Shown: one piece after another, positions 13,180 to 22,824 of the stretch | Position numbering within the stretch: the first letter of the stretch is position 1 | How the letters are laid out: every line of letters begins with the position of its first letter | Source of the DNA: Escherichia coli | GTDB taxonomy: Bacteria > Pseudomonadota > Gammaproteobacteria > Enterobacterales > Enterobacteriaceae | Assembly (NCBI RefSeq): GCF_003334255.1 | Contig: NZ_QOWU01000047.1 | Reading direction: 5' to 3' (one strand) | Length of the DNA stretch: 43,500 nt | Notes under the pieces: model-generated | Told to the model about the DNA's origin: nothing | The model's database searches: none | The model's input: the letters and a program-made list of their open reading frames with translations, nothing else | Translations under genes and position numbers: made by a program

Positions 13180-15156
13180 TTATGGCATTACGCCATCAGT
13201 CAGATAGTTGCCATGCTTAACCGCGTGACGCCGCCACATCAGGAGAATTGCAGTCGAGATTGCAGCCCCCACCAATGCCGCGCCAAACCAGCCAATTGCC
13301 GCCATAACACCGCCCGCGCCATTATCATGAAGTAAAAAGAGCGAGAAAATGCCGGCACCGGGTGTCGAAAGGCCGATATTCATCGCACCGACAATAGCGC
13401 CCGTTACCATAGAGCCCAGCACAAACGAACCAATAACCCGCAGCGGATCTTCAATCGCCATCGGGATCGCCCCTTCGGTAATACCTGCCAGCCCTAACAG
13501 CCAGGTGGATTTCCCGGTCTCAATTTCAAACTCTTTAAACAGGCGCGGTGCGAGCATCGTGGAAGCGGTTACGGTAAATGCCGAAACCATTTTGACGGAG
13601 GCGAAAATGGCATACGGGCCGTAAACGCCGTTCGCCATTGCGCCCAGGCAGAATGCATAAGCGGCTTTATTCACTGGCCCTCCAAGGTCAAAGGAACACA
13701 TAAAACCGAGAATGGCACCCAGCAACAGCGCGTTACTTCCTGACAGACCGTTCAGCCAGGCGGTAAGCGAGTTATTGATCCAGGCGACAGGTTCCCCCAC
13801 CACAAACAGCATCAGACTGCCCGCTCCCAACGTACCGAGCACCGGGTAGAGATAAAAAGTCAGGAATCCATTGAATTTACTGCTAAGACGCAAGTGATTT
13901 TTCACCCAGCGCATCAAGTAACCGGCTATCAATCCGCCAACGACCGCGCCGAGAAACCCGGAGCCGATCATGTTGGCGGCAAGTCCAGCCGCAAAGCCTG
14001 GCGCTAACGCCGGTTTATCTGCCAGAGAATAGGCGGTATAGGCCGCGAGCACCGGTACCATCAAAATTCCGAGCAGCCCGCCGCCCAGCTTGCGGTACAT
14101 CCACAGCCAGGAGTTTTCTTCATTAAACAGATCTTGTAGCCCGAAGATTTGCGACAGTAATACCGCGACCGCCAGCACCGTGCCCCCCGCGACAATCAAC
14201 GGTACGGCAAAAGAGATTCCGCTCAACAGTGCCTGTTTCAGCTCCGTTTTGACACTTTTCACCGGTTGCGTATCTTGCTGTACGGTACGCGTCTCATCGC
14301 TACGCTTGAGGGTAAGCGCTTGTTGGATCAACGCTTCTGCATGGCGAATCGGCTCGGCAACAGGCACTGAAAGCGCGGGAATGCCATTAAAACGCTCACT
14401 CTCCTTGATGGCGACTTCAGCCGCAAAAATACAGGCGGTTGCACTATTGAGTTGATCCGCCGTTAAACGCCCTTCAATGCCGTTAGCGCCTTGTTTTTCA
14501 ACGTAAACATTTACGCCGAGTTTGCGTCCGGCTTTTTCCAGATATTCCGCAGCCATATAGGTGTGAGCAATACCCGCCGGACAGGCCGTTACGCAGACGA
14601 TAGTTGGCGCGTTGGAAAAAGAGGCAGAAGGTTGCGTGCCTCCCTTGTCATCCAGCGCCGAGAGCAACTCATCAGGCGTCGTCGCCGACTGTATACGCGC
14701 CCGAATCTCATCATCCGCAAGGCGCGTGGTCAGCGCTGTCAGCAGTTGCATATGCGTAGTACCCGCTTCATTGGGGGGAATCGCCAGCAGCACCACTAAA
14801 TCAACTGCTTCCGGGCCATCAACGCCTTCCCACTGAAGCGGCTCGCTGAGTGTGGCGACCGCAAACGCCGCTTCTTTTACCGCAGCAGTTTTGCCATGCG
14901 GCACAGCCAACCCTTCACCTAAGGCGGTCGGGCCAAGGCTTTCACGGCGATACACTTCTTCCAGAAATTGCTCAGTACTGGAAATTTTCCCCAGAGCAGC
15001 AAGACGTTGAGTCAACGCGTGGATGGCCTCTTCACGGCTGGTAAAGCGCGCATTCAGACACAACGCATCGCGGTGGGTCAGAGTCGTCAGATTCATCATG
15101 ATCCTCACTTGATCGTTTTTATAGTCGCGCCAGTGTGCCCGATAAAACAATACCAT
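13180..15156 (-). CDS. mngA: PTS 2-O-alpha-mannosyl-D-glycerate-specific EIIABC component (fructose-family PTS permease)
   Basis: 658-aa ORF with N-terminal EIIA, EIIB and C-terminal polytopic EIIC domain. Confidence 0.92.
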
Positions 15157-15230
15157 TATGTGATCAATTTCACTTGATTGAAATTATTTGTATTGTATTT
15201 GTATTATTTACAGGATGAATTTATCGGGCA
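15136..15230. promoter_or_regulatory. mngR-mngA divergent control region: three tandem TGTATT direct repeats flanked by an 11-bp perfect inverted repeat (candidate MngR operator)
   Basis: tgtattgtatttgtatt at 15189-15205; tgcccgataaa at 15136-15146 and its exact reverse complement tttatcgggca at 15220-15230. Confidence 0.55.
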
Positions 15231-15264
15231 TAATGGTTAAATTCGTATTAATGAGATACTAAAA

Positions 15265-15987
15265 ATGGGACACAAGCCCTTATACCGGCAGATTGCCGAT
15301 CGCATTCGTGAACAAATTGCGCGTGGCGAGCTTAAACCTGGCGATGCGTTACCCACTGAATCAGCGCTACAAACAGAGTTTGGCGTCAGCCGGGTTACGG
15401 TGCGTCAGGCTTTGCGCCAGCTAGTCGAGCAGCAGATCCTCGAAAGCATTCAGGGCAGCGGGACTTACGTCAAAGAAGAGCGGGTCAATTACGATATTTT
15501 TCAGTTAACCAGTTTTGATGAAAAACTGTCGGACCGTCACGTCGATACACACAGTGAAGTTCTGATATTCGAAGTGATTCCGGCTGACGATTTTCTTCAG
15601 CAACAGCTACAAATCACCCCGCAGGATCGTGTGTGGCATGTGAAGCGCGTGCGCTATCGCAAGCAAAAGCCAATGGCGCTGGAAGAAACCTGGATGCCGC
15701 TTGCGTTGTTCCCGGATCTCACCTGGCAGGTCATGGAAAATTCGAAATATCACTTTATCGAAGAAGTGAAGAAAATGGTTATCGATCGTAGCGAACAGGA
15801 AATCATTCCTCTGATGCCAACCGAAGAGATGAGCCGTCTGCTTAATATCAGCCAGACAAAGCCGATTCTTGAAAAAGTATCGCGTGGATATTTAGTTGAT
15901 GGTCGGGTGTTTGAATATAGCCGCAACGCTTTTAATACCGATGACTATAAATTTACCCTGATAGCGCAGCGAAAATCATCGCGATAA
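15265..15987 (+). CDS. mngR: GntR-family (HutC/FarR subfamily) transcriptional repressor of the mannosylglycerate operon
   Basis: 240-aa ORF with N-terminal GntR winged-helix (LPTESALQTEFGVSRVTVRQALRQL) and UTRA effector domain; divergent from mngA. Confidence 0.92.
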   Translation: MGHKPLYRQIADRIREQIARGELKPGDALPTESALQTEFGVSRVTVRQALRQLVEQQILESIQGSGTYVKEERVNYDIFQLTSFDEKLSDRHVDTHSEVLIFEVIPADDFLQQQLQITPQDRVWHVKRVRYRKQKPMALEETWMPLALFPDLTWQVMENSKYHFIEEVKKMVIDRSEQEIIPLMPTEEMSRLLNISQTKPILEKVSRGYLVDGRVFEYSRNAFNTDDYKFTLIAQRKSSR

Positions 15988-15990
15988 GCA

Positions 15991-16015
15991 CAAAAAAGGC
16001 CATCATACGATGGCC
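15991..16015 (-). terminator. Rho-independent terminator of the sdh-suc operon (hairpin ggccatc-atac-gatggcc followed by U6 on the minus strand)
   Basis: Perfect 7-bp GC-rich stem with 4-nt loop at 15998-16015, A6 on the plus strand at 15992-15997 (= U6 after the hairpin on the minus-strand transcript). Confidence 0.8.
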
Positions 16016-16090
16016 AACCATGTCGAAACCGACAGCCCTTCGCCATTCCTGTAGAGGGAAGCGGCGAGGGCTATTTCTTATTACAGATAT
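15991..16090 (-). ncRNA. sdhX: Putative 3'UTR-derived sRNA SdhX (RybD) from the sucD 3' UTR
   Basis: ~100-nt untranslated segment between the sucD stop and the terminator; a 3'UTR sRNA is described at this position in E. coli/Salmonella; exact 5' end cannot be determined from sequence. Confidence 0.45.
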
Positions 16091-16960
16091 TTATTTCAGA
16101 ACAGTTTTCAGTGCTTCACCGATATCCGCCAGGCTGCGAACGGTTTTCACGCCTGCGGCTTCCAGAGCAGCGAATTTCTCATCCGCAGTCCCTTTCCCAC
16201 CGGCAATGATGGCACCCGCGTGGCCCATACGTTTGCCTTTCGGCGCAGTCACACCAGCGATGTAACCCACAACTGGCTTGGTAACGTGCTCTTTGATGTA
16301 CGCAGCTGCTTCTTCTTCAGCGCTACCGCCGATCTCACCGATCATCACGATCGCTTCGGTCTGCGGATCTTTTTCGAACATTTCGAGAATGTCGATAAAG
16401 TTAGAGCCCGGGATCGGGTCACCGCCGATACCGACACAGGTCGACTGACCGAAACCGTAATCCGTGGTCTGTTTAACCGCTTCATAGGTCAGTGTACCGG
16501 AACGGGAAACGATACCCACTTTACCCGGTTTGTGAATGTGACCAGGCTGGATACCGATTTTGCATTCACCCGGAGTGATAACGCCTGGGCAGTTCGGGCC
16601 GATCATACGAACGCCTGCTTCATCCAGCTTCACTTTCACGGTCAGCATATCCAGCGTCGGGATGCCTTCAGTGATGGTGATAATCAGTTTGATGCCTGCG
16701 TCGATGGCTTCCAGAATGGAGTCTTTGCAGAACGGTGCTGGTACGTAGATAACAGAAGCGGTAGCGCCAGTGGCAGCAACGGCTTCACGCACGGTGTTGA
16801 ACACCGGCAGGCCGAGGTGGGTGGTGCCGCCTTTACCTGGGGTTACGCCGCCAACCATTTTAGTGCCGTATGCAATGGCCTGTTCTGAGTGGAAAGTCCC
16901 CTGGCTACCGGTAAAGCCCTGGCAGATAACCTTGGTGTTTTTATCGATTAAAATGGACAT
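16091..16960 (-). CDS. sucD: Succinyl-CoA synthetase alpha subunit
   Basis: 289-aa [36 protein letters not shown]... with CoA-binding and phosphohistidine motifs. Confidence 0.97.
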
Positions 16961-18126
16961 TATTTCCCCTCCACTGCGGCAACAACCTGCTGAGCTGCAT
17001 CCGTCAGACCTTTTGCTGCAATAATATTCAGGCCGCTGTCAGCCAGTTTCTTCGCGCCGAGTTCGGCGTTGTTACCTTCCAGACGTACCACGACCGGTAC
17101 GTTAACACCCACTTCTGCTACCGCGCCGATGATACCGTCAGCGATCAGGTCGCAACGAACGATACCGCCGAAGATGTTAACCAGAACGGCTTTCACTTTG
17201 TCGTCAGAGAGGATGATTTTGAACGCTTCGGTTACACGTTCTTTGGTTGCGCCGCCGCCAACGTCAAGGAAGTTAGCCGGTTCGCCGCCGTGCAGTTTAA
17301 CGATGTCCATCGTACCCATCGCCAGACCTGCGCCGTTAACCATACAACCGATGTTACCGTCCAGCGCAACGTAGTTCAGTTCCCACTGTGCAGCCTGTGC
17401 TTCACGCGGATCTTCCTGCGACTGGTCACGCATTTCGCGCAGATCAGGCTGGCGGAACAGTGCGTTGCCGTCAGCGCCCAGTTTGCCGTCGAGGCAAATC
17501 AGATCGCCCTGTTTGGTGATGACCAGCGGGTTGATTTCGATCAACGCCAGGTCGCGCTCCAGGAAAATGGTCGCCAGGCCCATGAAGATTTTGGTGAACT
17601 GCTGAACCAGTTTACCTTCCAGACCCAGTTTGAACGCCAGCTCGCGTCCCTGATACGGCATCGGGCCAGTCAGCGGATCAAGCGCAACTTTATGGATCAG
17701 GTGCGGAGTTTCTTCCGCCACTTTTTCGATTTCCACGCCGCCTTCGGTGGAGGCCATAAAGACCACACGACGGGAACTACGGTCAACAACGGCACCGAGA
17801 TACAGCTCTTTAGCGATATCGGTCGCTGCTTCAACCAGAATCTGGTTAACCGGTTGGCCATTGGCATCTGTTTGATACGTTACCAGACGCTTGCCCAGCC
17901 AGTTTTCTGCAAAAGCACGGATGTCTTCTTTGCTGTTTACAACTTTCACACCGCCCGCTTTACCGCGGCCACCAGCGTGAACCTGACATTTCACTACCCA
18001 CGGACCGGCACCGATTTTTGAAGCGGCTTCTTCTGCTTCGCGCGGAGTAGTACAGGCATAACCCACCGGTGCTGGTAAGCCATAGCGGGCAAAAAGTTGT
18101 TTTGCCTGATATTCATGTAAGTTCAT
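16960..18126 (-). CDS. sucC: Succinyl-CoA synthetase beta subunit
   Basis: 388-aa [23 protein letters not shown]... with ATP-grasp domain; stop overlaps sucD start (ATGA). Confidence 0.97.
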
Positions 18127-18204: not shown

Positions 18205-18480
18205 GTCACCCGTAGGCCTGATAAGACACGTTAAACGTCACATCAGGCATCGCTTGTCGGATGCGGCGCTTGCGCCTTATCCGACCTACATTGGTGGTCC
18301 CCGTAGGCCTGATAAGACACGTTAACCGTCACATCAGGCATCGCTTGTCGGATGCGGCGCTAGCGCCTTATCCGACCTACATTGGTGGTCCCGTAGGCCT
18401 GATAAGACGCGTCAGCGTCGCATCAGGCTTCAATTGCCGGAGAAGGCGATAATGCCTTATCCGGTCTACAGTGCAGGTGA
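18205..18480. repeat. Tandem array of three REP/BIME palindromic units (~91-bp period) in the sucB-sucC intergenic region
   Basis: Unit ...cgtaggcctgataagacacgttaaacgtcacatcaggcatcgcttgtcggatgcggcgcttgcgccttatccgacctacattggtggtcc... begins at 18211, 18302 and 18392; contains the REP consensus (gcctgatgcg...cgcatccggc-type palindromes). Confidence 0.85.
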
Positions 18481-22704: not shown

Positions 22705-22824
22705 GCCTGATGCGCTGCGCTTATCAGGCCTACGGGTAATGACTTGTAGGCCGGATAAGGCGTTCACGCCGCATCCGGCACTGGTTGCCTGATGCGACGC
22801 TTGCGCGTCTTATCAGGCCTACGG
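22705..22824. repeat. REP/BIME palindromic elements in the sdhB-sucA intergenic region
   Basis: gcctgatgcgctgcgcttatcaggcctacg ... ggccggataaggcgttcacgccgcatccggca ... gcctgatgcgacgcttgcgcgtcttatcaggcctacg: typical REP consensus in alternating orientation. Confidence 0.85.

Follow-up and report, generated by a model that had tools for sequence, protein, structure and literature searches.

Among the small RNAs (sRNAs) that RNase E processes from mRNA 3' untranslated regions (3'UTRs) are CpxQ (from cpxP), SroC (gltIJKL), NarS (narK), and GlnZ (glnA), and SdhX is like them in this respect (review PMC9438474). SdhX, formerly RybD, is an sRNA that depends on Hfq, is processed by RNase E from the sdhCDAB-sucABCD mRNA and carries its seed just before the terminator (Miyakoshi et al. 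2019, NAR, PMC6393394). In Salmonella, its levels drop in an RNase E temperature-sensitive strain and its 38-nt form needs the RNase E 5' sensor, as seen in an R169K strain (PMC6393394). Association of SdhX with Hfq is documented by co-immunoprecipitation and CLIP (literature including PMC6393394), and RIL-seq and Hfq-CLASH recovered chimeras of SdhX with ackA and katG on Hfq in E. coli (PMC7213987; review PMC9438474). The 38-nt form is enough for the repression of ackA, pta not being repressed; an E. coli ackA fusion is repressed by SdhX, the compensatory proof of this pairing coming from Salmonella G41C/C5G mutants; and regulation of fdoG via a G62:C-13 pair and of katG via C34 in the variable region has been proven in E. 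coli by compensatory mutations, the katG site with published C34G and compensatory mutants (PMC6393394). The 3'UTR also has a role in cis, as its whole deletion lowers SucD in Salmonella (PMC6393394), an effect on SucD expression that exists alongside the function of the sRNA.

The present analysis concerns the region downstream of sucD in a 43,500-nucleotide stretch of Escherichia coli DNA, hereafter the window, whose features at this locus are collected in Table 1. The operon order in the window is that of MG1655 (gltA, sdhCDAB, sucABCD, sdhX, mngR), with sucC, sucB, sucA, and sdhCDAB lying upstream of sucD on the same minus strand as SdhX. sucD is the last gene of sdhCDAB-sucABCD, the parent mRNA of SdhX; its TAA stop codon occupies 16093-16091 (-), and SdhX starts at the adjoining position 16090. 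Since the annotated genes reach to 16091 (sucD) and 15987 (mngR, the next annotated gene and convergent with sucD), the interval 16090-15988 is without an annotated gene.

A preliminary description of this interval, made from the sequence alone, had proposed about 100 nt of non-coding sequence after the sucD stop, closed by an intrinsic terminator (hairpin 15998-16015 and U6 on the minus strand), as a candidate for SdhX/RybD. The non-coding character was borne out, the single small open reading frame (ORF) in the interval being judged spurious; a terminator scan matched the terminator coordinates, and the proposed identity agrees with the reference, the bases being those of the sdhX (b4764) ncRNA of NC_000913.3. 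The interval proposed at the time (15991-16090) covered 100 of the 101 nt of the curated gene and fell one 3' base short of its true extent (16090-15990).

Identity at this locus was established by alignment of window 15980-16100 (-) with E. coli K-12 MG1655 NC_000913.3 765040-765160, a comparison that spans the feature and 10 nt on each side and in which 121 of 121 positions are identical. The curated RefSeq features of NC_000913.3 here are sucC, sucD ending at 765049, the ncRNA sdhX, and mngR on the opposite strand, with 765050-765150 described as "sdhX, b4764, small regulatory RNA SdhX"; given the full identity with the MG1655 stretch, sdhX thus corresponds to window 16090-15990 (-). No sequence evidence against this reading was found in the window, and the element is almost certainly SdhX, an sRNA of the Hfq-dependent class that derives from an mRNA 3'UTR and is processed from the operon transcript.

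Table 1. Features of the sucD-mngR interval, in window coordinates.
Feature	Position in window	Strand	Basis
sucD (succinyl-CoA synthetase alpha subunit, 289 aa)	16091-16960	-	ORF list; annotated sucD b0729 in NC_000913.3
Full-length SdhX, ~101 nt	15990-16090	-	= annotated ncRNA sdhX b4764
Upstream stem-loop, variable region, SdhX nt 19-57	16034-16072	-	minimum-free-energy folds and 3'UTR alignment
E. coli-specific katG site GCUUCCCUCUACAG, nt 29-42, including C34 at 16057	16049-16062	-	helix counts
Predicted RNase E cleavage between G62 and U63	16028-16029	-	sole RN↓WUU motif
Seed UUCGACAUGGU, SdhX nt 64-74	16017-16027	-	exact match to published seed
Rho-independent terminator stem-loop, SdhX nt 76-93	15998-16015	-	terminator scan and covariation
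U6 tail (TTTTTT), transcript 3' end	15992-15997	-	terminator scan; T-run invariant in alignment
mngR, next annotated gene after sucD, convergent	15265-15987	+	

SdhX is a known, curated gene and a textbook example of an operon mRNA with a second role as a regulator, and its identification in the window adds no new biology; it is a TCA-cycle transcript carrying an sRNA that tunes acetate kinase, and hence acetyl-phosphate, plus oxidative-stress genes. The main E. coli paper on SdhX is that of De Mets et al. (2019, PNAS). Searches with Rfam 15 of the whole window at gathering thresholds, and of 15900-16200 at E-value thresholds, returned no match to an SdhX/RybD family. At 15900-16200, isrD gave a terminator-type match of 17.3 bits that is below threshold (gathering score 37), and isrD, asX2, and snoR9 were rejected there as sub-threshold chance or terminator-like matches. 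Among the matches listed for pipeline-annotated E. coli genomes, only sucD and mngR, or another protein-coding neighbor, lay under the match; the absence of SdhX from Rfam 15 fits these annotations without an ncRNA, and the two together make SdhX appear unannotated beyond the curated MG1655 record.

The terminator stem (GGCCATC/GATGGCC) comprises seven pairs, five of them G-C, around a loop of four (GTAT). A terminator consensus scan of minus strand 15000-17000 found one site only, at SdhX, although one pattern match per 2 kb is at chance level (shuffles average 1.8); the weight rests on the fold z-score and on the covariation of the hairpin. Folding of the 106-nt RNA gives -42.4 kcal/mol (z = -4.72), a stability equalled by 0 of 200 shuffles. 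Across 24 species the terminator hairpin is paired in 100% of cells, and four of its seven pairs have changes on both sides (A-U/G-C, C-G/U-A); the covariation score of the stem was reached by 0 of 500 column shuffles, and slid registers pair in 22-61% of cells. The U6 tail is expected to be the contact for the proximal face of Hfq, the binding of which is known from the literature. Just upstream of the terminator lies the seed core, TCGACAT (16026-16020, -), and the published E. coli-specific residues are present, with nt 62 a G (window 16029) and nt 34 a C (window 16057). The upstream hairpin with the katG-pairing loop is common to E. albertii only, other genera being unalignable in this part of the full 3'UTR alignment.

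Conservation was assessed in 80 loci sampled through SucD, with one genome per species and independently of the 3'UTR, from which the sequence after the stop codon was extracted. CGACAT (as TCGACAT) abutting a terminator hairpin was found in 23 Enterobacterales of this sample, distributed over Escherichia, Citrobacter, Enterobacter, Kluyvera, Pluralibacter, Phytobacter, Siccibacter, Mangrovibacter, Superficieibacter, Cedecea, Serratia, Rahnella, Dickeya, Hafnia, and Yersinia nurmii. Outside Enterobacterales, seed and terminator occurred together in 0 of 34 species, and no seed next to a terminator was found in the Pantoea, Erwinia, Photorhabdus, Xenorhabdus, Morganella, Arsenophonus, or Budvicia of the sample. 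All 24 sequences of the Enterobacterales alignment share the seed core TCGACAT unchanged, and the 5 nt upstream of it show no constraint; a lack of seed conservation relative to published SdhX, which the preliminary description had named as evidence that would count against SdhX, is thus not what we find. Between the stop codon and the end of the T-run lie 44 to 187 nt, depending on the species, in keeping with a free spacer, and the 3' end of the seed varies across seed-bearing lineages from GG to GU, AU, UU, or AUAU. The conserved parts of SdhX have been described as its [quoted passage not shown] (PMC6393394), and the combination found here, in which the seed is single-stranded and invariant, the terminator co-varies, and the spacer is free, is the pattern stated in that description.

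The module is patchy: Enterobacteriaceae, Serratia, Rahnella, one Yersinia, Dickeya, and Hafnia have it, whereas the sampled Erwiniaceae, Morganellaceae, and Budviciaceae do not, although a closely similar terminator persists in some of the latter. As judged from these sequences, such a distribution of seed plus terminator would mean that SdhX has repeatedly been lost or retargeted. In Erwinia psidii (L034), a closely similar terminator (TTGGCCACC..GGTGGCC and a T-run) without CGACAT lies ~18-45 nt after the sucD stop, and loci L038 and L042 are similar; comparison of Erwiniaceae with the seed-bearing species suggests gain or loss of the seed next to a terminator that is itself homologous. Within Enterobacteriaceae, Enterobacter sp. 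BIGb0383 (L018) has TGCGACTTAACTGGCC at the seed position, ~52-90 nt after the sucD stop, instead of TTCGACATGGTTGGCC, and its SdhX may be degenerate or retargeted.

Pairing was evaluated between SdhX and positions -60 to +40 of MG1655 target genes as the longest contiguous Watson-Crick helix, compared with shuffles. For ackA this is a 9-bp helix of SdhX nt 65-73 with -2 to +7 (UCGACAUGG of SdhX with CCAUGUCGA of ackA), which lies over the AUG and the UCG codon (shuffle fraction 0.016). For fdoG it is a 10-bp helix of nt 62-71 with -22 to -13 of the leader (shuffle fraction 0.004), which gives G62:C-13, exactly the published pair. The katG helix is likewise 10 bp (nt 33-42 with -20 to -11; shuffle fraction 0.006) and, with one G-U pair, extends to 14 bp (nt 29-42 with -20 to -7) over the Shine-Dalgarno sequence, a length matched by 0 of 300 shuffles. 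E. coli yfbV, reported as not regulated by SdhX (PMC6393394), has 6 bp only (nt 67-72 with -1 to +5; shuffle fraction 0.79). With helices of 9-10 bp at ackA, fdoG, and katG and only 6 bp at yfbV, the sequence thus agrees with what has been published, for the regulated targets as well as for the unregulated one.

At 9-10 bp, the ackA helix is a short one, and with G-U pairs allowed its duplex length is not distinctive relative to shuffled mRNA, so its specificity rests on conservation and published genetics. Two other ways of scoring the targets were rejected. ViennaRNA duplexfold of full-length SdhX against 100-nt targets yielded long duplexes, rich in loops, that did not surpass shuffles (-42.0 for ackA against a shuffle mean of -40.9), and because duplexfold ignores intramolecular structure it was replaced by contiguous-helix counts. 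Helix counts that allowed G-U pairs gave spurious sites for ackA and fdoG, whereas Watson-Crick-only counts gave the published ones.

In the most probable mechanism, the seed UUCGACAUGG would pair across the start and second codons of ackA and block translation of acetate kinase, leaving pta unaffected, and this repression would link expression of the TCA-cycle operon with acetate and acetyl-phosphate metabolism. G62 would lengthen the pairing to the fdoG leader in E. coli, and the loop of the variable upstream hairpin would pair with the katG Shine-Dalgarno sequence.

In the same scheme, SdhX would have no promoter of its own and would arise with the operon transcript, as the final ~100 nt of the sdhCDAB-sucABCD mRNA, the intrinsic terminator of the operon providing its 3' end and RNase E freeing an RNA of ~101 nt that starts at the sucD stop codon. 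A second RNase E cut, at GG↓UUU (between window 16029 and 16028), would then yield the ~38-nt form, in which the seed is single-stranded and is followed by the terminator hairpin and the U-tail. The preliminary description held that the processing site could not be read from sequence, which is nearly right; a lone RNase E-type motif (RN↓WUU) does predict a product of 37-38 nt, though this is a prediction and not a mapping. It is the only such motif in 16130-15990 (-), i.e., in the last 40 nt of sucD and all of sdhX, and it lies between G62 and U63; the predicted 3' product to the end of U6 measures 37 nt (37-38 nt), in line with the published ~38-nt form. The SdhX2 processing site has been placed at UUU and at the G62 position (PMC6393394), and the exact position of cleavage in E. 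coli is probably G62/U63 on the strength of the motif.

Predicted folds suggest what this cut may do. In the 37-38-nt 3' fragment the seed is predicted to be fully unpaired, the terminator alone folding, and in the full-length fold a weak 4-bp hairpin (GUCG/CGAC, nt 58-61 with 66-69) partly pairs the seed. Cleavage would remove the 5' arm of this hairpin and so free the seed; in the model, the seed of the 101-nt form may be hidden by this hairpin, and the cut between G62 and U63 would then be activating rather than neutral. These two proposals, repeated loss or retargeting of SdhX in the patchy lineages and activation by cleavage in E. coli, seem to us rather doubtful.

Readings other than a processed trans-acting sRNA were weighed against these observations. 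The interval might hold only the intrinsic terminator of the sdh-suc operon and an inert spacer, with roles in cis (mRNA 3'-end formation, stability) and no trans-acting RNA; the terminator is certainly present, the lowering of SucD by the Salmonella 3'UTR deletion shows that a cis role exists (PMC6393394), and in Erwiniaceae and species outside Enterobacterales a terminator straight after sucD occurs without the seed. A terminator, however, needs no 7-nt single-stranded TCGACAT, which is fixed in 24 species while its neighbors and the spacer length are free; this block is complementary to the ackA start region, and regulation in trans has been shown by published compensatory mutations of seed and target (PMC6393394), leaving the reading very improbable. 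Seed point mutations that alter AckA at unchanged SucD levels have also been published. We give equally little credence to a MicL-like sRNA with a promoter inside sucD that is not processed from the operon mRNA. SdhX and SucD levels are indeed not always correlated in Salmonella (PMC6393394), and one sigma-70-like match, the sole one on the minus strand, lies in sucD at 16536-16509 (-), but this match is weak (9/12), lies ~420 nt upstream, and belongs to a class found at chance frequency (three found, 2.0 expected). The minus-strand promoter scan found no promoter-like site near the SdhX 5' end; moreover, no start site of transcription is on record in the literature upstream of the 5' ends of SdhX, and SdhX is lost in the RNase E temperature-sensitive mutant (PMC6393394).

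The interval could alternatively encode a small protein, given that an ATG-initiated ORF of 33 aa, the only one there, overlaps it at 15945-16046 (-). This ORF crosses the terminator and has its stop 47 nt past the U-tract, so the terminated transcript would have no stop codon; many E. coli strains have other sequence past the U-tract, and the region upstream of the seed varies in length and frame between genera, codon-level conservation being lacking. The ORF was accordingly rejected as a gene, as a spurious frame that reads through the terminator into strain-replaced sequence, and the small-protein reading is the least credible of the three. SdhX, processed from the operon transcript, is the reading that we retain.

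Within E. coli, a 116-nt SdhX query had matches in all 5,426 complete genomes at 90-100% identity, with at least 80% of the query covered in 5,425 of the 5,426. A 501-nt query likewise matched 5,426 of 5,426, and many matches, including that of K-12 MG1655, were 100% identical. When four divergent strains were aligned, nt 58-83 showed no polymorphism; it was the upstream hairpin, the loop of the terminator, and the base that follows the U-tract that carried the changes. In E302 (L088) and muskdeer13-4 (L089), aligned to window 16054 and 16044-16043, U37 of the katG loop is changed to C, and the opposite arm of the upstream hairpin also differs, at nt 47-48; these variants might weaken katG pairing.

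One of the 5,426 genomes, FDAARGOS_944 (NZ_CP065613.1), has an IS1 inside sdhX. Its 9-bp target-site duplication, TCGACATGG, is the SdhX seed (L085 2576-2584 and 3352-3360; window 16026-16018), the sucD 3'UTR running into the IS1 and a second copy of the seed, together with the terminator, following past it. With IS1 thus placed between the sucD 3'UTR and the terminator-linked seed copy, SdhX biogenesis is naturally disrupted in this genome.

Directly after the SdhX terminator (window 15990-15992), homology between E. coli strains stops, and ~28% of E. coli genomes cover less than 80% of the 501-nt query; in O157:H7 F7349 and muskdeer13-4, other sequence or neighbors (an RtcB-family or TPR protein) replace mngR. 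The SdhX terminator is the edge of a strain-variable segment. In the window, 3 nt separate the stop codon of mngR (15985-15987, +) from the annotated sdhX 3' end. Read on the plus strand, the shared hairpin (window 15985-16015) has an A-run before it and no T-run after it, and mngR is therefore without a canonical terminator of its own. Transcripts of mngR could read through, antisense, into sdhX and sucD.

Elsewhere, the window is not exactly MG1655: a full match was rejected, as the two are 99.9% identical overall and the window has ~93 nt extra in the sucB-sucC spacer. This intergenic region (window 18215-18377) holds two tandem REP-type units, matched by Rfam naRNA4 right at its gathering score, and the extra REP unit of ~93 nt relative to MG1655 appears as BLAST blocks that overlap at 18289-18384; the strain from which the window derives is therefore K-12-like but not identical to MG1655. 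A further naRNA4/REP copy lies between sdhB and sucA (22749-22819, +). The other Rfam matches were the CpoB/ybgF RNA thermometer (142 bits; 1513-1651, -), two RtT elements interleaved with the tRNA-Lys/Val cluster (123-579, -), and ES036 (CssrF; 40201-40243, -). The RNA thermometer, RtT, ES036, and naRNA4 matches are all expected for such an E. coli region.

Compared with known systems, the element itself is without difference from SdhX b4764 of E. coli K-12, to which it is identical at 101 of 101 positions and which also follows sucD; seed, terminator, G62, C34, and the complementarity to ackA, fdoG, and katG are all alike. Salmonella SdhX has a U at position 62 where E. coli SdhX has a G, and the E. 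coli RNA differs further in its longer variable region with the katG-pairing loop and in regulating neither yfbV nor fumB (PMC6393394). MicL, which lies within cutC, resembles SdhX as an Hfq-class sRNA located at a 3' end and sharing its terminator with an mRNA, but is driven by a sigma-E promoter of its own within the coding sequence, of a kind neither evident nor reported for SdhX. With CpxQ, SroC, NarS, and GlnZ, SdhX has in common an operon terminator that serves as 3' end and Hfq module, a 5' end made by RNase E, and a seed directly upstream of the terminator (PMC9438474); the parent mRNAs, seeds, and targets of these four are others. SdhX is unusual in being conserved only in its CGACAU core and U-tail, whereas CpxQ is conserved throughout (PMC6393394).
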